From Candidatus Uhrbacteria bacterium (GTDB lineage Bacteria; Patescibacteriota; Patescibacteriia; SG8-24), in contig JAFGIV010000006.1 of assembly GCA_016929435.1 (NCBI GenBank), positions 8,071 to 72,070 of the forward strand: a stretch of DNA of 64,000 nt. The letters run 5' to 3'. The notes below the pieces were generated by a model, which saw only the letters and a program-made list of their open reading frames with translations, made no database searches and was not told where the DNA came from. Each line of letters opens with the position of its first letter. Within the stretch, counting starts at the first letter, position 1. The translations under genes were made by a program, and so were the position numbers. This document shows positions 8,307-60,066 of the stretch, one piece after another.

Positions 8307-8609
8307 TCAGTCCGCAAATAGGGGAACGATCAGGTAGATTGCCAGTGCCGCTATCCCCATGATCACCATGCATAGGGCCATGACGATGGCCTCGTCGGCC
8401 CAGTCCGTCTTCGGTTCGTGCCAATCGAACCGCCGGTCGTCCGGCCCGTTTGCCCGGTCCTCGTCACGGTATCGGATGGAATCCCTCCTGTCCGTCCTTT
8501 TTCTGTCGAACATACCCCCGCTTCGGTTATTTCGGGGAACACAAATGGCTCCCCGAGCCGGCGACGAGACCTTTCGGTTTCGTCCCATACCCTTTCGGGC
8601 ATGGACCAC
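8307..8609 (-). CDS. Small protein with C-terminal TM anchor (hypothetical); start possibly the internal MFDRK at 8513
   Basis: 100-aa ORF ending in IVMALCMVIMGIAALAIYLIVPLFAD. Preceded on the minus strand by a long structured leader and a TATAAT box (8727-8732). Confidence 0.4.
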   Translation of the reverse strand: MVHARKGMGRNRKVSSPARGAICVPRNNRSGGMFDRKRTDRRDSIRYRDEDRANGPDDRRFDWHEPKTDWADEAIVMALCMVIMGIAALAIYLIVPLFAD

Positions 8610-8726
8610 GCAAATAGTGCCGGTCAGGAGACCGTCTCTGTCTGCGTGGGTTTGCGGCCATGCCCCGCATAGGCGGGGTTTAGGCCATTCGGTTGTCTTT
8701 CCTTATTCGGTCGTTTCGTTTTTCTC
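8514..8726 (-). promoter_or_regulatory. Candidate structured 5' leader (riboswitch-like) upstream of the small membrane protein
   Basis: Minus-strand RNA contains nested hairpins CCCCGC-CUAU-GCGGGG, CCACGCA...UGCGUGG, three GNRA (GAAA) tetraloop hairpins (CCC-GAAA-GGG, ACC-GAAA-GGU, GACGA...UCGUC), GGCUC-GGG-GAGCC, and a CCCC...GGGGG stem that overlaps the G-rich stretch 2 nt before the AUG. Confidence 0.3.
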
Positions 8727-8796
8727 ATTATAACCGACAGTGCCCGTCCGGGGAAGGGGGTTGTTTTTTCGCCATTTCATGCGGTTTTTGCGGGTC

Positions 8797-8826
8797 TTGA
8801 CGAACGGTTTCCGTTTTCGGTATATT
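8797..8826 (+). promoter_or_regulatory. Sigma70-like promoter (TTGACG-18-TATATT)
   Basis: -35 ttgacg 8797-8802, 18-nt spacer, -10 tatatt 8821-8826. Confidence 0.5.
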
Positions 8827-8864
8827 TTTCGTGATAATTCACCTAATGCATCAATTGCCCAAAT

Positions 8865-9014
8865 ATGGACGATGACATGCGCGACGACGACATCCTCGAG
8901 GAGGATGGGACGGAAGGGGTCGAAGAGGACCTGGATGGCGTCGAGGAAACGGACCCTGAGGCGGATGCCGACGGCGGGGACGTGGACGATGACATGGATG
9001 ACGACGAGCTTTAG
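8865..9014 (+). CDS. Hyper-acidic 49-aa protein (hypothetical)
   Basis: MDDDMRDDDILEEDGTEGVEEDLDGVEETDPEADADGGDVDDDMDDDEL. GC-rich third codon positions. Own promoter upstream and a perfect terminator hairpin downstream. Below the 60-aa cutoff of the ORF track. Confidence 0.5.
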   Translation: MDDDMRDDDILEEDGTEGVEEDLDGVEETDPEADADGGDVDDDMDDDEL

Positions 9015-9036
9015 GCCGTTGGGCATCTGAAGACGA

Positions 9037-9065
9037 CCGGAACGGGCGAACCCGTTCCGGTTTTC
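9037..9065 (+). terminator. Rho-independent terminator
   Basis: ccggaacggg-cgaa-cccgttccgg perfect hairpin followed by tttt. Confidence 0.8.
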
Positions 9066-9141
9066 GTTACCCGCCAATACGCCCACGGTTGGGGAAGGGG
9101 AGGGAACGGCGTTGCCCGTGAGGTTTCGGTAGGTTCCTTAA

Positions 9142-9780
9142 ATGCTGCCGCCCGTTTTGGATGGGCAATGTTTGCAAAATAGAAAAAGTTATTTTATCAA
9201 ATTAGGAATAGACACAAATAACATAGTATCAACTAATTTGATACACGAAACCAATGTGGCGGTGGTTGATGAAAAAGACAGGGGTCAAATCCTCCCCAAT
9301 ACCGACGGACTGATGATAACCGCCAAGCAAGGCGTTTTCCTGACGGTAACGGTAGGGGATTGTGTCCCGATATATTTTTTTGATAAAAACAAAAAGGTTA
9401 TTGGTTTAGTACACGCTGGTTGGCGCGGCGTTATAAAAAATATTTCAAAATCATTGATTGATAAAATGGCAAATGAATTTGAGTCAAAATCAGAAGACAT
9501 ATCTGCCCATATTGGTCCCCATTTGCAGAAATGCCATTTCGAAATAAAAGAGGATATTGTGCCGCAATTTGATGGCGAGTTTGTCTTGAGAGAAGACCGC
9601 ATCATGAAAGTTGATTTACGATCCATGATAAAACAACAACTCCTGTCACTTGGCGTAAAATCGGAAAATATAGACTCAAGTGATGGATGTACCTTTTGCG
9701 ACAAGGAAAAATATTTTTCATATCGTAGAGATAAACCAGAAAAAGTGCAGTCAATGATTGCGTATATAGGCATGATATAA
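9142..9780 (+). CDS. pgeF: PgeF/YfiH family (DUF152, Cu-oxidase_4) protein, apparently 5'-truncated at a GC-content junction
   Basis: VGDCVPIYFFD, LVHAGWRGV, CTFCDKEKYFSYRRD and SMIAYIGMI match the YfiH/PgeF core. Compared with E. coli YfiH, about 35 aa are missing from the N-terminus (the STRxGGxS region). GC content drops sharply at about 9176 inside the ORF. Confidence 0.6.
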   Translation: MLPPVLDGQCLQNRKSYFIKLGIDTNNIVSTNLIHETNVAVVDEKDRGQILPNTDGLMITAKQGVFLTVTVGDCVPIYFFDKNKKVIGLVHAGWRGVIKNISKSLIDKMANEFESKSEDISAHIGPHLQKCHFEIKEDIVPQFDGEFVLREDRIMKVDLRSMIKQQLLSLGVKSENIDSSDGCTFCDKEKYFSYRRDKPEKVQSMIAYIGMI

Positions 9781-9983
9781 TAGGGAATGTTCGTTTTTTG
9801 GCATTCACTCTCGTCCCTCTTCCCGTATGGGGTTTCGGTTTTCTGAAAAACCCGTTCCCCAAACTCTTCCCCGTTACGCCGTGCCGAACCCCCCATGTCC
9901 GCAACATTAGGTGAAATACACGGAAAGTCTTGTCGGTAAGATGCTCAAAAGTAATCAATTTTTCATTTATTATGAACACGACA

Positions 9984-10028
9984 ACAGAAAAAGCCATACC
10001 TTAACGGTATGGTTTTTTCTGGTAGGCC
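9984..10028. repeat. att-like direct repeat, copy A (tRNA-Glu 3' tip plus downstream hairpin)
   Basis: acagaaaaagccataccttaacggtatggttttttctggtaggcc matches 14150-14194 (acagcaaaagccacgccttaacggtgtggcttttgctggtagccc) at about 38 of 45 nt. Ends with the TGGTAG(G/C)CC tRNA 3' terminus. Confidence 0.6.
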
Positions 10029-10253
10029 AGATACTCGCCCAGTGGAACCAGCTTATCCCGGAGCTTAAGGCTTGGGCGGCGTTTGAGGAGGTTCTTAAAA
10101 ACGAGGCTAGATCTGGGATTTTGGTAGGTGGTTAGAGTCTGACAAGGGGGAGTGGAATCAGTGTCATGAGAGATAGCATGGAACAACTTATTGTAGAAAA
10201 TTTAAAGCACGGACGTGGTAAATGCCCGTGCTTTAAATTTACAGTTCCGCGGT

Positions 10254-11018
10254 CTATGAGCCTGAAGCAAAGATATATAAGTCTGGATTGATATAGATAT
10301 CGTCTGGGGTAACCCAGTAGCCACCGTTGTAATCAATATTTTTGCTAGCGGAGTATTCGTAGCCCTTGTATGGCAATTTACTACAGTACCAGTTACTACT
10401 CGTATATTTGGATGTTGGCGTATAGAATGGCTCGCCAGCTTGATTGCGGATGTAAGTAACCGCACCGTATCGGTTCGAATAAGTCACAGATGGAAACCAG
10501 CCACCTTGTGCAGTATCATAATTGTTTCGGATAGACGATTTTGATTGTCTGCCGACTTTGTCACATACATCCGGTTCAGAACTGCAGATTCCGGAATCAG
10601 GGTATGCGCTCCAGAAAGGTCTTTCTGAAAGGTCATTTGGATCAGATTGATAGGCGCTATCAAAGGTTGCCACATGCTTCCATGTGCATACTACACCGTC
10701 AAAGAATTCGCAGCCTGGATTGGTGACAAATACTATGTCACCGTAATCGAAATAGACAAACGAAATGTTGTTGGTTCCCGTGTTAAGCAAGCTAACATCA
10801 GATTTATTTGGGAGGTTTTTTTGATTGGCTACATACGTAGTGTCATTTTTTAGGTTCAACACCGGAATTTTTGGGATATGTTGTTGCGATTTCATCTTAT
10901 CCATTGCCACACCGTGCTGTATGGCAGCATCTGTCAACTGTGGTGTTTCTTGGGCCATGGCCCCGCTTGAAAGCAAGACGCCAAATGTGATTGAGAGTGC
11001 TATGGCTAATTTTTTCAT
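10254..11018 (-). CDS. Secreted hypothetical protein (signal peptide), low-GC island cargo
   Basis: MKKLAIALSITFGVLLSSGAMA|QE signal peptide. Aromatic and Cys-containing mature domain. AT-rich codon usage distinct from flanking DNA. Confidence 0.65.
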   Translation of the reverse strand: MKKLAIALSITFGVLLSSGAMAQETPQLTDAAIQHGVAMDKMKSQQHIPKIPVLNLKNDTTYVANQKNLPNKSDVSLLNTGTNNISFVYFDYGDIVFVTNPGCEFFDGVVCTWKHVATFDSAYQSDPNDLSERPFWSAYPDSGICSSEPDVCDKVGRQSKSSIRNNYDTAQGGWFPSVTYSNRYGAVTYIRNQAGEPFYTPTSKYTSSNWYCSKLPYKGYEYSASKNIDYNGGYWVTPDDIYINPDLYIFASGS

Positions 11019-11034
11019 ACTTTTTTGTGAAAAG

Positions 11035-12249
11035 TTAGTTTGTGATAATGGTCGGGTTGCCCTGTAGGTTTATGGTGTTGATATTTTTGAAAGAGCTTAA
11101 TGAGAAAATTTGGATGTCTTCATTTCCTGGTCGAGTTACAAATATCTCATTATTGATGATTATAGCATCTTTTGCCGCAAAGAGATACTGGTCATGAGTA
11201 TCCACGTCGTCAATCAGGTCCCCTGTTTTTTTGTCTATGATGACAATGCCCCCTTTTTCTGTTAACGGGTCACCGGTGCTGTCAGAATATATCATTAGGA
11301 CATAATTTCTGTGAATTAATAATTTTGGATTAGAATGTCTTGGGGTGACAAGGTATTTGGAGTCGTCTTTTATTTTGTTGTAAATAACCAGAACAGTATT
11401 GCCTTTCGGGTAAACAGTTTCTTTAGATATTTTAACATCGTTTTGTTCATTATAGTCACCTATAAACGGCATCCAGTAGGATTCACTTGGCGGATCATAG
11501 GCTATGTCAGCAGGATATACGTCAGCAATTTTTTTAGTAATTAGTAAGTCGATACTGCTGGAAAAATCAGGATAGACAATGGCTACATTGTTGCCCTCGT
11601 TTCCTCCAGATCCATGCATAATTGGTATGTACACTTGGCCGTCATTTAATAGCCGAGGCTTTCTGGGTGATCCCGGCAGGTTTTTGACAGTTTGTATTTC
11701 ATTCGTCTCAGAATCTAGAATTGATATTGCCCACCCGCTGCCATCTTTGTATTCAAATGAATGGACGATGTAAGCATTTCCTTGGTTGTCGAAAGTCATC
11801 TGTTCTGGGAGTGCCTCAGACTGTATTTTTGCTACAATTTTTTCTTCGTTTGGATTGATGATCGCAATATGGGCTGTGATTTTTTTTTTGCTCGACGACT
11901 GTTCTTTTGGCTTGACCGATACGCTTGCGTAGAGATGGCCATTTGGAGCAAAATCTATATCGGCGACGTAGTAGTACTTTGGGTCGGCGATTTGGAGACC
12001 GTGTCCGATCTGCTCTCTGGTTTTTGCATTAAAAAAATATACGAAGTTTTTGTTGACTAAGATTGCAAACTGATTATCATCGCGTTCGATATTTGGCAGG
12101 CGTCCAACATGTTCCAGCCCTAATTCAGCATCGTTATTTTTTGGTGTACGACTCTTGTGGCATATAGCGCCAACAGCACATGTTGCCACGAGTGCGATGA
12201 TTGACACGGTTACCATTGATAATTTTATTTTAGTTCGTGGTGTTTGCAT
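11035..12249 (-). CDS. Membrane-anchored beta-propeller-like protein (YVTN/YncE-like repeats), island cargo
   Basis: N-terminal TM (VTVSIIALVATCAVGAI). Repeated blades such as ISILDSETNEIQTV and IVIIDKKTGDLIDDV. AT-rich. Confidence 0.65.
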   Translation of the reverse strand: MQTPRTKIKLSMVTVSIIALVATCAVGAICHKSRTPKNNDAELGLEHVGRLPNIERDDNQFAILVNKNFVYFFNAKTREQIGHGLQIADPKYYYVADIDFAPNGHLYASVSVKPKEQSSSKKKITAHIAIINPNEEKIVAKIQSEALPEQMTFDNQGNAYIVHSFEYKDGSGWAISILDSETNEIQTVKNLPGSPRKPRLLNDGQVYIPIMHGSGGNEGNNVAIVYPDFSSSIDLLITKKIADVYPADIAYDPPSESYWMPFIGDYNEQNDVKISKETVYPKGNTVLVIYNKIKDDSKYLVTPRHSNPKLLIHRNYVLMIYSDSTGDPLTEKGGIVIIDKKTGDLIDDVDTHDQYLFAAKDAIIINNEIFVTRPGNEDIQIFSLSSFKNINTINLQGNPTIITN

Positions 12250-12349
12250 ACTGCATGTAGAAAAGTTGTATTTTTAAATACGTTTCATAGAAATTATATA
12301 TGGTAATGAAAGATAGCAAAAGATTGATATTTTTAGAGCAGGCCGGCTA

Positions 12350-12403
12350 CGCGCCCAGTGGAACACGCTTTGGAGTGTCCCCCATACGTTAGACAGACTT
12401 CCC
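12350..12403 (-). pseudogene. Pseudo-tRNA fragment (D-arm/anticodon-arm half related to tRNA-Glu)
   Basis: gtgtcccccatacgttagacagacttccc versus the tRNA-Glu gene gtgtcctaaccgttagacgaacgggcc (shared cgttagac, gtgtcc, cacgcttt). Also shares a 13-nt CGCCCAGTGGAAC motif with the sequence just right of repeat copy A. Confidence 0.3.
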
Positions 12404-12428
12404 ACGGAGAGGGCATAATCAAGAACGT

Positions 12429-12705
12429 ATGGCAAAATACGTAGACAGGGACCTGAAGGAACAGGTTCTCCGGGCCGTCAGGGACGGCATGAAGGTCTCC
12501 TGGGCCAAGGCCAAGTTCGGGGTCAGCGACAACGTCGTGTGCGGCTGGCTCCGGGTCCAGACAGACAAAAAGCCAGGACCTTGCGGCCCTGGACTGGATT
12601 GAGATCGAGAGGCGCCTGGACAGCCTGCCCCGGAAGTCGCTCGGATACCTTACGCCCAACGAGGCACTGAATCAATACCTGGAGGGTGGTGCAATTAAGG
12701 GTTGA
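12429..12705 (+). pseudogene. Decayed IS30-like (rve/DDE) transposase remnant: N-terminal HTH fused out-of-frame to the C-terminal tail
   Basis: MAKYVDRDLKEQVLRAVRDGMKVSWAKAKFGVSDNVVCGWLR (HTH), stop, then frame-shifted IERRLDSLPRKSLGYLTPNEALNQYL, which resembles the IS30 C-terminal LNNRPRKTLGxKTPxE motif. The segment is GC-rich inside the AT-rich island. Confidence 0.5.
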
Positions 12706-56583: not shown

Positions 56584-57053
56584 TATGTCTGGGAGGTTGG
56601 CCAGACGGTCGCCCCGGTGACGAACCGGGGAGGAAAGTCCGAACACCCGTTCCGGCGCAAGCCGGGACGACCGGCGATAGTCGCTAACGGCGACCGGGTA
56701 TAAGGCGAAAGTGCGGCCGGCAACGGCCGAAAGGCCATGGCCGCAACTCGTCGAAGCCCAGGGAAAGTGCAACAGAAAACACACCGCCTGAACCCCGAAA
56801 GGGGTGAGGATTCGGATGAAGCCGAAAGGCCGACCCGAACCAGGTAAGGTTGAAATCGTGGGGTAAGGGCCCACGCGGGAGAGCCGGGTGACCGGCCCCG
56901 TGGAAAACGCCTATCCGGTGCAAGAGCAAGTTTGGTAGCTCGCATTCCGTTCCCAAAATCGGGGCGGAGGAGGCGGTCGGCAACGGCCGCTCAAGAGAGA
57001 TGACCGTCCGTTCCCTCCGGGGGACGACAGAATTCGGCTTATCGACCGGCCTC
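56584..57053 (+). ncRNA. rnpB: RNase P RNA, bacterial type A
   Basis: Conserved P4 GGAGGAAAGUCCGAACACC. AGUGCAACAGAAAACACACCGCC. CAGGUAAGGUUGAAAUCGUGGGGUAAGGGCCCACG. 3' GACAGAAUUCGGCUUAUCGACCGGCC pairing with the 5' end. Ends are approximate. Confidence 0.85.
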
Positions 57054-57061
57054 AAACGTCG

Positions 57062-57090
57062 AAACCCCTGCCCAAACGGCAGGGGTTTCG
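57062..57090 (+). terminator. Terminator hairpin after rnpB
   Basis: aaacccctgcc-caaac-ggcaggggttt; the T-run is weak. Confidence 0.5.
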
Positions 57091-57195
57091 TGATAAATTA
57101 CAGTTAGTTATTTGGCTGTTTTAAGCCATAATATTAACTATGTTTAGTTATTTTTATCTAATAATTAGATATTTGATACAATATTTTGTATTAAC

Positions 57196-57224
57196 TTGAC
57201 AGTTAATTATGGATACTCTATAAT
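57196..57224 (+). promoter_or_regulatory. Sigma70 consensus-like promoter (TTGACA-17-TATAAT) in an AT-rich islet
   Basis: Perfect -35 and -10 hexamers. Upstream direct repeats gttagttattt x2. Confidence 0.6.
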
Positions 57225-57262
57225 AAAAAACATAAGTTATTAAGAGCTATGGCTTAATAATT

Positions 57263-58450
57263 ATGATCAGAAAGATAAAATTCAGTAATTTCTATTCCTT
57301 TAATGGGGAACAGGAGATTGATTTTACGGCGACCAAGAAAAAGAACGACTATAGTTATTATAATTCGCCGGTGGGCGATCAAATCACCAAAGTGGCCGGG
57401 TTTATTGGTGATAATGCTTCCGGAAAGACGAATATTCTTCGTGTTTTTAGTTTTCTGGGGTATTTTATCTGCAGCCCATCTCGTCCGACCCTAGTTGATT
57501 TGCCTTTTATTGCCTATAAGGCTTTTTTTGGCAATTCAGAACCGTCAAGTTTTTATATAGAATTTGAAATAGACCAAGACATATACAAGTATTCCCTGAC
57601 CTTGAAAAACAACATTGTCGAATCTGAGAGTTTGAACGTCAAAAAAATCGGCAGTTTGGGTGCGTCGGTGAAGGTGTTTTCAAGGACACCAGACGGAGTA
57701 AAGCTAAATGATGAACTGTTCCGCGGTTTTGATGAGATGGAAGGGATGAAGAATATTCGCTCTGATGTTTCCTTGATTTCTTATGTTAGGGCTAATTATC
57801 AGATTGATGTAATTGGCAAGATTTTTAGTTATTTTTCGAATTTCGGCTTCAACATAAACGAACGGGGTGACAAGTTTGGTATCGGATATTCGGCAATCAA
57901 ATATCTGGAAGACGAACAGGTGAAGACAAAAACGGATAATTACTTCATAGGGTCCAATACCGGTTTGAAGGGTTTTAAGGTTGAAAGGGATAACATAAAA
58001 AACGAAAGGGGGGAGGATATTGTCCGTATCTCTGTTTGGGGTATCCATAACACGGAAAAAGGCGATACGCTGCTTTATTCCGATTACGAATCGACCGGAA
58101 CGAAATCGCTGTTCTGCATGATCGATAAGTTGACGTTGGCCATCAAAAATAACGGTGTGGCGATAATTGACGAAATCGAAACCGGTCTGCATCCGGAAGC
58201 GCTGTATAAGTTGATTGGATACTTCATCGACGAGAACGAGGAAAGCCGGGCCCAGCTGATCTTCTCTTCACATTCCTTGGAATTCATGGGTAAGTTGGAC
58301 ATGCAACAAATCTATTTGGTGGAGAAGAATGAGGATGGGGAAAGCCGGGCATATCGCTTGGATTCTGTTGAAGGTGTAAGGTCGGATGATAATTTTATGG
58401 CCAAGTACATGTCCGGAGCCTATGGGGCCTTTCCGGACATTCGGGTTTAG
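57263..58450 (+). CDS. AAA_21-family ABC-like ATPase (RloA/AriA/AbiLi-like), anti-phage module component A
   Basis: N-terminal IKFSNFYSFNGEQEIDF...AGFIGDNASGKTNILRVFSFL (Walker A). C-terminal VAIIDEIETGLHPEALYKLIGYF...QLIFSSHS (Walker B/D-loop). About 33% GC versus about 60% background. Confidence 0.85.
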   Translation: MIRKIKFSNFYSFNGEQEIDFTATKKKNDYSYYNSPVGDQITKVAGFIGDNASGKTNILRVFSFLGYFICSPSRPTLVDLPFIAYKAFFGNSEPSSFYIEFEIDQDIYKYSLTLKNNIVESESLNVKKIGSLGASVKVFSRTPDGVKLNDELFRGFDEMEGMKNIRSDVSLISYVRANYQIDVIGKIFSYFSNFGFNINERGDKFGIGYSAIKYLEDEQVKTKTDNYFIGSNTGLKGFKVERDNIKNERGEDIVRISVWGIHNTEKGDTLLYSDYESTGTKSLFCMIDKLTLAIKNNGVAIIDEIETGLHPEALYKLIGYFIDENEESRAQLIFSSHSLEFMGKLDMQQIYLVEKNEDGESRAYRLDSVEGVRSDDNFMAKYMSGAYGAFPDIRV

Positions 58451-58458
58451 GGTGTTCT

Positions 58459-58950
58459 ATGTGTCCTTATCTCCTTTATGGCGAGGGCAGACGGGATAGA
58501 AAATTTTTGGAGGCTTTAGCTTCTGTACCGCAGTTTCAGTACCATACGAAAGGATGGATACCGAAATTCGACAATTGGCACGGATGTTCCGCCAAGAATA
58601 CGATAGAGGGGTGCCGCAAGGCCTTTTGTAAATATGGGGCCAAGTTTACCATTTGTCTGATAGATATTGATGATCTTAAGCATGACTATCCGGAAGATTG
58701 GGACGAACAGAAGTTGAAGATAGAGCAAGACGAAGTGGGTTGGCTATCCATTGTTTGGCAATACGAAAATGCCGAGGATGAATACAGGAAGGTCATCCCG
58801 GATCTGTACAACGGTGATAAGACTGCTAAAAACAGGGAAGCTGTGAGAAGAATAGCTGAGTTTGTCAATTGTGACCTTTGGAAACGGATAATGGAGGAAT
58901 TCGAGAGGAAAGCGGAATTCGAGAAAAAGAAACAGGAAAAAGACACTTGA
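58459..58950 (+). CDS. Small Toprim-like (RloB/DUF4435-like) partner protein, component B
   Basis: YLLYGEGRRDRKFLEALAS (Toprim Glu) and FTICLIDIDDL (DxD) about 55 aa later. 8 nt after the ATPase gene; same low GC. Only 163 aa, which is shorter than typical AriB/AbiLii. Confidence 0.55.
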   Translation: MCPYLLYGEGRRDRKFLEALASVPQFQYHTKGWIPKFDNWHGCSAKNTIEGCRKAFCKYGAKFTICLIDIDDLKHDYPEDWDEQKLKIEQDEVGWLSIVWQYENAEDEYRKVIPDLYNGDKTAKNREAVRRIAEFVNCDLWKRIMEEFERKAEFEKKKQEKDT

Positions 58951-58964
58951 ATACTTTATAGAAT

Positions 58965-58995
58965 TAAACAACCGCCCCGAAGGGCGGTTGTCTTT
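58965..58995. terminator. Bidirectional terminator
   Basis: aacaaccgcccc-gaa-ggggcggttgtc followed by ttt. Confidence 0.7.
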
Positions 58996-59004
58996 AAGTT
59001 CGAA

Positions 59005-60066
59005 TCATCTAACCCCGACCAGCTTCCTCACCTCTTTCAGCGTCTCCCCGGCGGTCTTTCCGGCCGTTTCCGCGCCTTTCTTCAGTATTTCTTTGAGGTG
59101 ATCCTCGTCTTCCCTGAACTTTTCGTATTTTTGGCGGAAGTCGGCGAAATGGTCGGATAGGCGTTCGGCCACCAGCCGCTTCAGCTCGCCGTACCTGATC
59201 GGCTGTCCGGCCATTATCAGCCTGGCTTCCCGTTCGCCGCCGGCCAGCTTGAGCAGGGTGAGGAGATTGTAGGCCCCGGCCTGGCCACACAGGTCAGTGC
59301 CTTCCCCGTCCGTCAGGGCCGGATTCGGCCCGCCGAGGCGGCGCTCCAGCTCCTCCTCCGAATATTTCAGTATTCCCGTGGTTTCCGTGACGGCCGATTT
59401 CAGCTTGGCGCAAATCGTGTCCGGGTCATCCCTAAGGGCGACATACGATTTTCCCCCCAGGCTCTTGGACATCTTCTTCAGCGGGTCGTTCAGTCCGCGG
59501 ATTTTCGGGGTTTCGGTCAGGAGCGGTTTGGGTTCAGTGAAATACCGGCCGAAACGGTTGTTGAAGAAACCGGCGATGTCCCGCGTCAGCTCCAGGTGCT
59601 GCAGCTGGTCCCGCCCCACAGGAACCTGGTCCGCCCGGTATATGAGGATGTCCGCGGCCTGCAGGACCGGATAGGCGAACAGGCCGACGTTGATGTTCTG
59701 TTTCTGCCGGGACGCCTTGTCCTTGTATTGGGTCATCCGCTCCAGGAAGGAGATCGGGGTGACGGTGTTGAGTATCCAGCAGAGCTCCGTGTGTTCCGGG
59801 ACATGGGACTGGACGAACAGGGTCGTCTTCTTCGGGTCAACGCCGATGGCCAGCAGTTCGGCCGCCAGGTCCATGATTTGCCGACTCTTTTCGGACGGGT
59901 CGTAATCCTCGGACAGGGAATGGTAGTCGGCGATGAAATAGAAACGCCTGGCCTCCCGTTCCTGCAGGGCGACCATGTTCCGGTAGATGCCGGCATAGTG
60001 GCCGAGATGCGACGGCCCGGTCGGCTGGACGCCGGTGACGATGGTGGGGATCTTTCTTTCGGTCAT
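59005..60066 (-). CDS. trpS: Tryptophan--tRNA ligase
   Basis: VTGVQPTGPSHLGHYAG (HIGH-type), KMSKSLGGKSYVAL (KMSKS); class I TrpRS length. Confidence 0.9.
   Translation of the reverse strand: MTERKIPTIVTGVQPTGPSHLGHYAGIYRNMVALQEREARRFYFIADYHSLSEDYDPSEKSRQIMDLAAELLAIGVDPKKTTLFVQSHVPEHTELCWILNTVTPISFLERMTQYKDKASRQKQNINVGLFAYPVLQAADILIYRADQVPVGRDQLQHLELTRDIAGFFNNRFGRYFTEPKPLLTETPKIRGLNDPLKKMSKSLGGKSYVALRDDPDTICAKLKSAVTETTGILKYSEEELERRLGGPNPALTDGEGTDLCGQAGAYNLLTLLKLAGGEREARLIMAGQPIRYGELKRLVAERLSDHFADFRQKYEKFREDEDHLKEILKKGAETAGKTAGETLKEVRKLVGVR

Follow-up and report, generated by a model that had tools for sequence, protein, structure and literature searches.

AbiL and RloAB are old and mechanistically unsolved members of a class of defence systems that combine an ABC ATPase with a Toprim protein, among which AbiL has been placed in previous classifications (PMC11464382; PMC13064643). 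Toprim domains are recognised by a conserved glutamate after strand 1 and a DxD motif after strand 3, and RloB is a member of this superfamily that carries the E and DxD residues (PMC12065111). In PARIS, the ATPase forms a scaffold that sequesters the Toprim nuclease, which is released by a trigger to cleave tRNA (PMC11464382), and toxins of the TOPRIM_OLD type are neutralised by AAA proteins (PMC10440598). The AbiLii protein of F. nucleatum is toxic in E. coli, and in one published test AbiLi of the same organism supplied in trans failed to neutralise it (PMC3985639), so that even in canonical AbiL a role of the ATPase as sensor or antitoxin has yet to be established. The window analysed in this study, a stretch of 64,000 nucleotides of an Uhrbacteria genome, contains a two-gene cassette that we consider likely to be a divergent ABC-ATPase and Toprim-nuclease module of the AbiL/RloAB class, belonging to a clade found mainly in Patescibacteria (CPR) and presumably acting by the defence mechanism proposed below.

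Locus, composition and boundaries

The following features, all on the forward strand, define the locus (positions refer to the window).

56593-57057, +, rnpB, the gene of the RNase P RNA (Rfam RF00010, 141 bits)
57060-57090, +, hairpin 3' of rnpB, an inverted repeat with a perfect stem of 13 bp and a loop of 5 nt
57090-57172, +, AT-rich leader with short direct and inverted repeats
57173-57194, +, palindrome TTGATACAA-TATT-TTGTATTAA of 22 nt, ending 1 nt before the -35 hexamer
57196-57224, +, promoter of the sigma-70 type, TTGACA-17-TATAAT, matching in 12/12 positions
57263-58450, +, gene A, AbiLi-type ABC ATPase (AbiLi by PADLOC, AAA_21/AAA_15 by Pfam) of 395 aa
58459-58950, +, gene B, predicted short and divergent RloB/AbiLii-like Toprim protein of 163 aa
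58483-58485, 58663-58665 and 58669-58671, +, candidate catalytic residues E9, D69 and D71 of B
58774-58776 and 58780-58782, +, further candidate catalytic residues E106 and E108 of B
58968-58991, +, terminator-like hairpin of 10 bp with 7 G-C pairs, located between B and the convergent trpS

The two-gene block directly follows the 3' end of the RNase P RNA gene at position 57057, and it is the stretch of 1.9 kb with the lowest GC content of the window. The values of about 33% for the block and about 60% for its surroundings given in the original prediction have to be corrected to 40.3% (positions 57090-58996) and 57.5% (entire window), with the intergenic part (57090-57262) contributing 20.8%, gene A 41.6% and gene B 43.7%. 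Another low-GC block of comparable depth is located at about 8750-12500 of the window. The left edge of the insert coincides with the hairpin following rnpB, from which the GC content falls. The predicted consensus promoter agrees in each of its 12 positions, and the predicted clean terminator is found in the hairpin downstream of B, just past which the stop codon of the convergent trpS is reached at position 59005. This hairpin, for which an equivalent is found in the close relative L003, probably terminates transcription from both sides and delimits the insert on the right. Flanking direct repeats were searched as integration scars around the insert, without yielding convincing candidates.

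The ATPase and its Toprim-like partner

The best match of gene A is the PADLOC model of AbiLi (PDLC02335), which it recognises with 219 bits and an E-value of 1.7e-65, compared to 231-298 bits obtained for ATPases that adjoin RefSeq-annotated RloB proteins. Further matches concern the Pfam families AAA_21 (PF13304; E 6.3e-28, 99 bits at a cut-off of 27) and AAA_15 (E 1.3e-13). The protein displays the split architecture that had been proposed for it, with a Walker A motif of sequence GDNASGKT (G49, N51, G54 and K55), a signature-like motif ESTGT (S277, G279 and T280), a Walker B motif IIDE (D303 and E304) and a segment SSHS, of which the Walker A, signature-like and Walker B motifs are invariant in its relatives. 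When searched by sequence in the PDB, its relatives are PtuA, the ATPases of the retrons Ec83 and Ec78 and the OLD nuclease of T. scotoductus, all of which are defence ABC ATPases. These sequence features identify gene A as an ABC ATPase of the AbiLi type whose nucleotide-binding motifs are intact, and the analogy to described systems predicts for it a role as sensor and regulator.

Gene B starts 8 nt past the stop codon of A, as expected from the prediction. On its own, it does not match any model in Pfam, PADLOC, NCBIfam or PHROGs, in the former three not even at E <= 1, and rule-based annotation would therefore leave an orphan ATPase and render the entire clade invisible. The family is rare, with 71 clusters in a set of 1.84 billion representative proteins and, in a pattern scan, occurrence in 12 of 185,579 species representatives. 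Nearly all complete members are 145-185 aa long. Related loci were searched with an alignment of six sequences of this family, and conservation and HMM matches were assessed in 46 members. Their sequences are 20-47% identical, and four acidic residues (E9, D69, D71 and E106) are invariant in all 46, which confirms that the proposed E...DxD arrangement is real and conserved among homologues.

Evidence for the relationship to RloB emerges at the level of the family. Matches to the Pfam RloB model (PF13707) were found for 24 of the 46 members, all below threshold, with a best E-value of 4.2e-6 and scores of 16.6-20.3 bits in the four members listed individually (gathering score 31.5), and 19 of the 46 match the PADLOC AbiLii model PDLC02337 (best E 9.6e-6). 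Gene B of the window matches neither and consequently falls short of an assignment to AbiL by HMM threshold of the AbiLii/RloB partner. Its remote homology to RloB/AbiLii is found in a comparison of the B family with seven RefSeq RloB proteins by hhalign (probability 96.8%, E 2.1e-10, 111 columns). In this alignment, E9 pairs with the glutamate of the conserved EG-ETE stretch of RloB following the first strand, while D69xD71 is matched to its DKD motif and E106 to the glutamate in its CFE motif. The aligned region is confined to residues 5-116 of B, with the C-terminal helical tail having no counterpart in RloB. A protein of 171 aa encoded on a Shewanella plasmid beside the best plasmid match of the ATPase was rejected as not RloB-like and left out of the reference alignment. 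Together with the AbiLi score of gene A, the profile homology sustains the description of the pair as a divergent variant of the ATPase-plus-Toprim family.

The predicted structure of B (pLDDT 94.7) finds its best matches in the Toprim domains of OLD nucleases, and the top match in BFVD is an RloB-like protein. In a Foldseek search of the model against the PDB, no match was obtained at E <= 1e-3 and lumazine synthases rank top, and a PDB sequence search with the profile of the B family returned a match at chance level (E 0.82). For this reason, the assignment to Toprim does not rest on the fold alone. It is reflected in the location of the conserved residues, with strand 1 of the model covering residues 2-8 and strand 3 residues 63-69, so that E9, D69 and D71 occupy the places of the Toprim glutamate and DxD motif. 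As far as can be judged from sequence, gene B is thus a distant RloB-like Toprim protein whose E/DxD/E set is invariant across its family, and by analogy we predict it to be a nuclease effector. Its description as miniature, with half the size of known partners, is appropriate with respect to AriB (~35 kDa; PMC11464382) but overstated relative to RloB proteins, which exceed B in length only slightly, since the RloB-family partners on RefSeq plasmids contain 170-221 aa and the Pfam RloB model 195 positions.

Promoter palindrome, distribution and origin

A conserved palindrome at the promoter, with the family consensus TTAATACAA-N4-TTGTATTAA, is an element of the cassette that was previously unnoted. 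It occurs once in the window, compared to 0.03 occurrences expected by chance. All 21 non-redundant cassettes carry it next to the -35 box, with 14-16 of the 16 arm positions conserved and a distance of 42-68 nt to the start codon of A in all of them. Between the window and L003 it is 100% conserved, and a -35 element of the TTGACA/TTGCA type is retained beside it in the other loci. None of the plasmid AbiL loci examined has the palindrome in its upstream region, and no half-site was found downstream of B in 18 loci. These properties are consistent with a putative operator. A recognisable DNA-binding domain is absent from both A and B. The 51 IMG/VR matches to the 16-base pattern come without A or B and were taken as chance, as were those of L032 and L037 located in AT-rich DNA devoid of ORFs. 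Several of the matching IMG/VR contigs are giant-virus bins.

Gene A is located directly upstream of B in the loci L001, L002, L004-L007, L016-L031, L033-L036 and L038. None of the complete loci examined has the two apart from each other, and in all relatives they remain separate genes. They are thus strictly coupled. The carriers are mostly low-GC Patescibacteria, with a GC content of 30-40% in most of the host genomes of relatives, and the genomic context of the cassette is unrelated from genome to genome, with different neighbours in every one. These are mostly housekeeping genes, accompanied only occasionally by defence or mobile genes, namely SocA_Panacea, HEPN_AbiU2, Fic, a resolvase or an rve integrase. 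Searches of INPHARED phages, PLSDB plasmids and IMG/VR did not reveal any homologues of B. In its composition, the cassette is foreign to the Uhrbacteria genome with its GC content of about 58%, and the predicted horizontal acquisition is supported by the GC content at third codon positions (0.50 in A and B vs 0.80 in trpS) and by the presence of the same cassette at unrelated sites in low-GC Patescibacteria. Since one relative carries it at the same site beside trpS (with A being 72% and TrpS 78% identical), this acquisition was not recent. In L003, gene A is intact (dN/dS ~0.11) and B is cut to an in-frame remnant of 27 codons, which suggests that B is dispensable and possibly a toxic effector.

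Proposed function and relation to known systems

The steps of the mechanism that we propose are modelled on PARIS, on P2 OLD and on those homologues of AbiL that have been tested, of which PARIS is the best mechanistic model. The palindrome, the promoter, A and B form a self-contained unit, in which A would oligomerise and keep B inactive. Upon sensing of a phage-derived cue by A in conjunction with ATP, B would be freed or activated and its metal-dependent Toprim site would then cleave host nucleic acid, most likely tRNA or another RNA as in case of AriB and P2 OLD, or alternatively nick DNA as found in class 1 and 2 OLD nucleases. The ensuing growth arrest would abort the infection. The palindrome would most simply be an operator, used by a product of the cassette or by the A-B complex to autoregulate the promoter in the manner of type II toxin-antitoxin operons. 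A more elaborate version, which we regard as tentative and rather doubtful, describes a distinct, self-regulated derivative of AbiL, where the A-B complex or the family-specific C-terminal tail of B binds the palindrome, the Toprim effector doubles as sequence-specific autoregulator and palindrome, promoter, A and B would move as one unit among Patescibacteria.

The same organisation could be expected for a plain toxin-antitoxin or addiction module, consisting of a toxin B, an antitoxin A and an autoregulatory palindrome, that would be selfish and without a role in phage defence. The bicistronic operon with its operator-like element, the classification of pairs of AAA and TOPRIM_OLD proteins as toxin-antitoxin systems by NetFlax (PMC10440598), the insertion among housekeeping genes instead of defence islands and the state of L003, which has lost B but kept A as expected if a toxin can go but an antitoxin cannot, are all compatible with such a module. 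We nevertheless hold it to be improbable, in light of the founding AbiL system, which confers resistance to phages (Deng 1999, cited in PMC13064643), and of the characterised relatives of the ATPase, which are all defence proteins. Moreover, toxin-antitoxin and abortive-infection roles are compatible, as illustrated by PARIS, which is both (PMC13064643).

The palindrome must have a recogniser that is encoded by or travels with the cassette, which, together with the family-specific helical tail that does not align to RloB, could point to B as a regulator or adaptor on a flavodoxin- or Toprim-like scaffold, possibly binding the palindrome, with A as the active component. This appears very unlikely, as the four invariant acidic residues are located exactly at the catalytic positions of Toprim domains, their invariance at such low sequence identity is the pattern of an active site and the profile homology is to RloB and not to lumazine synthase. 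The adjacency to the RNase P RNA gene could in turn reflect a housekeeping pair in RNA processing, placed beside rnpB for functional reasons, where B would resemble RNase M5, itself a small Toprim ribonuclease (PMC12065111). The rarity of the family, the neighbours varying across all genomes, the foreign base composition and the deletion of B in a close relative leave this explanation with hardly any credibility, and it was rejected.

A defence module of the AbiL/RloAB class thus provides the preferred reading, with the defence role and its mechanism being deduced from analogy. The genomes of Patescibacteria are tiny and reportedly poor in defence systems, and a cassette as compact as this one (about 1.8 kb) that has spread across several of their lineages bears on how they handle phages. 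If the version as self-regulated AbiL derivative were true, the cassette would count as one of few dedicated defence modules in these minimal, episymbiotic genomes. The Toprim partner of about 160 aa represents a minimal version of the effector that is suited for structural and biochemical study, the conserved palindrome leads to a hypothesis on the silencing of such cassettes that can be tested, and an HMM built from the alignment of the B family could close the annotation gap.

Among known systems, class 1 and 2 OLD proteins (P2 Old and GajA; 6nk8, 6p74 and 8u7i) combine ATPase and Toprim domain in one polypeptide, in contrast to the two ORFs of the cassette, which are separated by a stop codon and the 8-nt spacer, and B lacks the helical domain found in the C-terminal region of class 2. 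PARIS (AriA/AriB, class 4 OLD-like) resembles the cassette in encoding its ABC ATPase (AAA_15/21) separately from the Toprim effector, and it had been named in the original prediction alongside AbiL and RloAB. Of this reading, the AAA_21 ATPase with an AbiL/RloAB-like Toprim partner is retained and PARIS rejected: AriB is a DUF4435 protein of ~35 kDa, compared to the 163 aa of B, and DUF4435 is absent from the 25 most-matched Pfam families of the 46 B members (E <= 1). Similarly, A reaches 96 and 60 bits on AriA models, far weaker than on AbiLi, and AriA has a mass of ~53-55 kDa compared to the 395 aa of A.

Closer counterparts are the RloB partners WP_064369880.1 (179 aa) and WP_080176573.1 (170 aa) on Vibrio and Photobacterium plasmids, which are small like B. 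The ATPases preceding them rank with the best matches of A on plasmids (26.5-29.1% identity; E 1e-33 and 2e-29). Unlike B of the window, these partners score above or close to the Pfam RloB threshold (39.4 and 30.7 bits) and match the PADLOC AbiLii model PDLC02338. With respect to AbiL and RloAB as a whole, the cassette differs in its B protein, which aligns over the Toprim core only and carries a different helical tail of ~45 residues, in the conserved promoter palindrome and in its chromosomal location in Patescibacteria. It shares with AbiLi/AbiLii of the Lactococcus plasmid pND861 and with RloA/RloB of Campylobacter type I R-M loci the order of an ATPase gene followed by a small Toprim gene, the close spacing or overlap of the two, the strong match of A to AbiLi and the aligned catalytic E, DxD and E of a profile-homologous B family, and it thus extends a known family without overturning its current understanding.

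The low-GC insert between rnpB and trpS

The cassette lies between the RNase P RNA gene and a convergent trpS gene, and its components are listed together with those of a second low-GC region.

Features of the cassette locus and of a second low-GC block (window coordinates; strand where assigned)
56593-57057, plus: RNase P RNA gene (rnpB; Rfam, 141 bits)
57060-57090: perfect 13-bp hairpin 3' of rnpB
57196-57224: promoter TTGACA-17-TATAAT, 12 of 12 consensus positions
57263-58450: ORF A, 395 aa
58459-58950: ORF B, 163 aa, starting 8 nt past the stop codon of A
58968-58991: GC-rich hairpin
59005-60066, minus: trpS, convergent
8566-8686, minus: LOOT RNA beside the second low-GC block
9142-9780: Cu-oxidase_4/YfiH-like gene beside the second low-GC block
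10254-11018, minus: ORF of 253 aa within the second block
11035-12249, minus: ORF of 403 aa within the second block

The GC content collapses at 57090, 3' of the end of rnpB at 57057, and the segment 57090-58996 is with 40.3% GC (leader 20.8%, A 41.6%, B 43.7%) the lowest 1.9-kb block of the window, which averages 57.5%. The values of about 33% for the block and 60% for the chromosome in the original prediction thus require correction, whereas the contrast that it described is real, as reflected in the GC content at third codon positions of 0.50 in A and 0.49 in B compared to 0.80 in trpS, and the foreign composition of the insert is established. The location directly after the RNase P RNA, the consensus promoter, the probable terminator (the GC-rich hairpin) and the size and 8-nt spacing of both genes all agree with what had been proposed. 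NCBI contains 100% identical entries for both proteins under Candidatus Uhrbacteria (Patescibacteria/CPR), the source of the window.

In the AT-rich leader, 5' of the palindrome described below, there are two copies of a 21-nt direct repeat (57093-57113 and 57133-57153, 76% identical) and two further short palindromes, TAACTATGTTTAGTTA and TATCTAATAATTAGATA. The match of the RNase P RNA extends over 465 nt compared to the 367 positions of the bacterial type A model, indicating insertions of about 100 nt. A second block of similar depth (about 8750-12500, 39-45% GC against the 57.5% of the window) encodes two adjacent ORFs on the minus strand, neither of which finds a match in Pfam or PADLOC, and may constitute another horizontally acquired two-gene islet.

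An AbiLi-type ATPase and its small RloB-like partner

The identity of protein A as an AAA_21-type ATPase, as originally proposed, is established by its matches to Pfam AAA_21 (6.3e-28) and AAA_15 (1.3e-13) and to the PADLOC model AbiLi PDLC02335 (1.7e-65, 219 bits), which exceeds by far the runner-up, a model of AriA (96 bits). For calibration, the AbiLi model gives 298 and 231 bits, respectively, for plasmid-borne ATPases of Clostridium and Vibrio that adjoin RefSeq 'RloB family' proteins. Invariant in 19 aligned relatives are G49, N51, G54 and K55 of Walker A, the signature-like S277/G279/T280, D303/E304 of Walker B, H310/P311 and Q331. A profile of the family reaches PtuA, the ATPases of the retrons Ec83 and Ec78 and the OLD nuclease of T. 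scotoductus, all of which are ABC ATPases of defence systems, and our search for a close solved structure of A returned none. The protein (57263-58447) also matches phrog_5836 of the PHROG collection (unknown function, 1.6e-57). This match covers only positions 5-405 of the 1071 in the profile, raising the possibility that an AbiLi-like ATPase is joined to a large further region in some phage proteins.

On its own, protein B has no match in Pfam, PADLOC, NCBIfam or PHROGs, and a word-indexed search of 5.8 billion proteins detected only two relatives. Searching 1.84 billion cluster representatives exhaustively with HMMER, we identified 71 clusters, 62 of them at E <= 1e-10. In an alignment of 46 sequences (20-47% identical to B), E9, G42, D69, D71, W100 and E106 are invariant, the acidic ones among them being the conserved Toprim residues, and G10, W33, C52, C66, I98 and E108 are retained in at least 90%. 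When these members were scanned singly, 24 of the 46 showed sub-threshold matches to Pfam RloB (best 4.2e-6) and 19 matched the PADLOC AbiLii model PDLC02337 (best 9.6e-6), with no other family recurring. The HMM and PADLOC searches suggested along with the original prediction have recognized A directly and B only by way of weak matches of its relatives.

As reference, we have aligned seven RefSeq RloB proteins that are paired with those plasmid ATPases which resemble A most closely. All of those tested are recognized by Pfam RloB, with four of five exceeding the cut-off, or by PADLOC AbiLii. The profile-profile comparison between both families gives a probability of 96.8% (E 2.1e-10, 111 columns). 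In this comparison, the counterpart of E9 is the glutamate in the conserved EG-ETE stretch following the first strand of RloB, that of D69xD71 is the RloB DKD motif and that of E106 is the glutamate in the RloB CFE motif, in line with the E...DxD arrangement that had been noticed in the sequence. This sequence-profile evidence, which we consider decisive, makes B a remote relative of RloB/AbiLii. The alignable part is confined to residues 5-116, and the last approximately 45 residues form a family-specific helical tail that is unlike the RloB C-terminus. The AlphaFold2 model of B, whose pLDDT increased from 72 with three sequences to 94.7 (pTM 0.86) with 36, is consistent with this kinship without being independent proof. 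It predicts four beta-alpha units followed by the helical tail, with E9 closing strand 1, the DxD closing strand 3 and E106/E108 immediately past strand 4, and its top match in BFVD is a myovirus 'RloB-like protein' (E 3.2e-3, probability 0.99).

Nearly all full-length members of the family contain 145-185 residues, which identifies the small size of B as a family property rather than a truncation. The claim that B is half the size of described partners holds with respect to AriB (35 kDa; PMC11464382) but not for RloB-family partners on RefSeq plasmids (170, 179, 205, 212, 219 and 221 aa) or the 195 positions of the Pfam RloB model, which define B as a short RloB-like protein.

Distribution, history and promoter palindrome of the cassette

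The strict coupling of both genes is established by the fact that A directly precedes B in every locus with available upstream DNA, including two short contigs with the closest relatives of B, contigs of Patescibacteria and Moranbacteria, twelve GTDB species representatives, four long metagenomic contigs and further metagenome loci. Named hosts are mostly Patescibacteria (Moranbacteria, Peribacteria, Saccharibacteria, Shapirobacteria, Paceibacterota), with Margulisbacteria and Wirthbacteria appearing among the names in the A family. The 30-40% GC of most host contigs fits a low-GC donor of the Uhrbacteria insert. Neighbours vary between genomes and are mostly housekeeping genes, with occasional mobile or defence genes (rve integrase, resolvase, SocA_Panacea, HEPN_AbiU2, Fic), and no homologues of B were found in phage, plasmid and IMG/VR collections.

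The same site is occupied in L003, a locus of an Uhrbacteria-like relative, where an A gene (72% identical) is followed by trpS (TrpS 78% identical) as in the window. This shared arrangement suggests that the cassette is older than the split of the two lineages, the alternative being its replacement in situ. The low GC of A has persisted (41.9% against 64.5% in trpS of L003), and a dN/dS of about 0.11 indicates purifying selection on the gene (57263-58447). The dS of A, about 1.7, exceeds that of trpS (59008-60066, about 0.71), with both values near saturation, which may be due to exchange of the allele in situ or to selection that keeps the GC content low. Whereas A is intact in L003, B (1295-1378) is reduced by an in-frame deletion to a remnant of 27 codons, in which the first nine (MCRCLLYGE) are joined to the C-terminal tail (WERIMAGF...), as would be expected if B were a dispensable, potentially harmful effector.

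Over the 34 nt up to and including the -35 box, the window and L003 are identical, and this stretch contains the palindrome ATACAA-TATT-TTGTAT, at which the L003 contig begins. Upstream regions of the cassettes share the consensus TTAATACAA-N4-TTGTATTAA followed by cTTG(A/C) of the -35 box. The conservation of this cis element is established by its presence in all 21 non-redundant cassette loci, with 14-16 of 16 arm positions kept, 42-68 nt 5' of the start codon of A proteins that are only 41-72% identical to ours. Each cassette locus (up to 17 kb) has a single copy of the core ATACA-N6-TGTAT, at constant position, and the 64-kb window one copy compared to 0.03 expected by chance; none is present 5' of the plasmid AbiL loci examined. 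Ten loci were recovered when metagenomes were scanned with 20 specified bases. In six of them, one with a divergent pair (A 41%, B 25% identical), the palindrome directly precedes an A gene; one match is at a contig edge, two lie in AT-rich DNA devoid of ORFs and one is located 42 nt 3' of a distantly related ATPase and its 209-aa partner. In the last of these (L040, 2259-4166; ATPase 28.5% identical to A), the palindrome, with CTTGC, comes after the stop codon of the partner and faces the other strand, possible explanations being an orphan operator and a vestige of an adjacent cassette. In L036 (1311-3023), with its more divergent pair (A 41%, B about 25%), the palindrome is extended and fully symmetric, CAAGTTAATACA-N6-TGTATTAACTTG, suggesting that CTTG of the -35 region may belong to the putative binding site.

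Across loci, we found neither conservation 5' of the palindrome or 3' of B, nor a second half-site 3' of B, which suggests a mobile unit composed of palindrome, promoter, A and B. With its span of roughly -59 to -38, the palindrome is most simply explained as operator for a dimeric binder travelling with the cassette, presumably A, B or their complex.

Relation to known abortive infection systems

AbiL confers abortive infection in Lactococcus (PMC13064643). AbiLii of F. nucleatum is toxic in E. coli and is not neutralised by AbiLi in trans (PMC3985639), and in other pairs TOPRIM_OLD toxins are neutralised by AAA proteins (PMC10440598). In PARIS, AriB is sequestered by a hexameric ATPase and, once set free in response to a phage protein, cleaves tRNA-Lys (PMC11464382), and tRNA anticodon arms are also attacked by P2 OLD (bioRxiv 10.64898/2026.07.10.737580). 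By analogy, A might sense a phage cue and control B, which upon activation would cleave RNA, most likely tRNA, or nick DNA by means of a metal site formed by E/DxD/E, leading to growth arrest, with the palindrome mediating autoregulation. Whereas it is highly probable that the cassette encodes an AbiL-class ATPase and Toprim module, and somewhat probable that it functions in defence in this organism, the specific steps of this scheme are tentative.

In its predicted mode of working, the module resembles PARIS, AbiL and RloAB. The originally proposed relationship has held for AbiL and RloAB, with A being a member of the AbiLi family and B a remote homologue of RloB/AbiLii despite scoring below HMM thresholds, but not as membership in PARIS, since no member of the B family matches DUF4435. 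A fused OLD nuclease was also considered for the cassette and rejected. New are the largely patescibacterial clade with its shortened, divergent Toprim partner, which is missed by current annotation tools, and the clade-specific promoter palindrome, which was not part of the original prediction. The cassette provides an effector of minimal size and a regulatory element amenable to testing, and compared to known systems it extends the map of defence in CPR bacteria while leaving existing concepts unchallenged.
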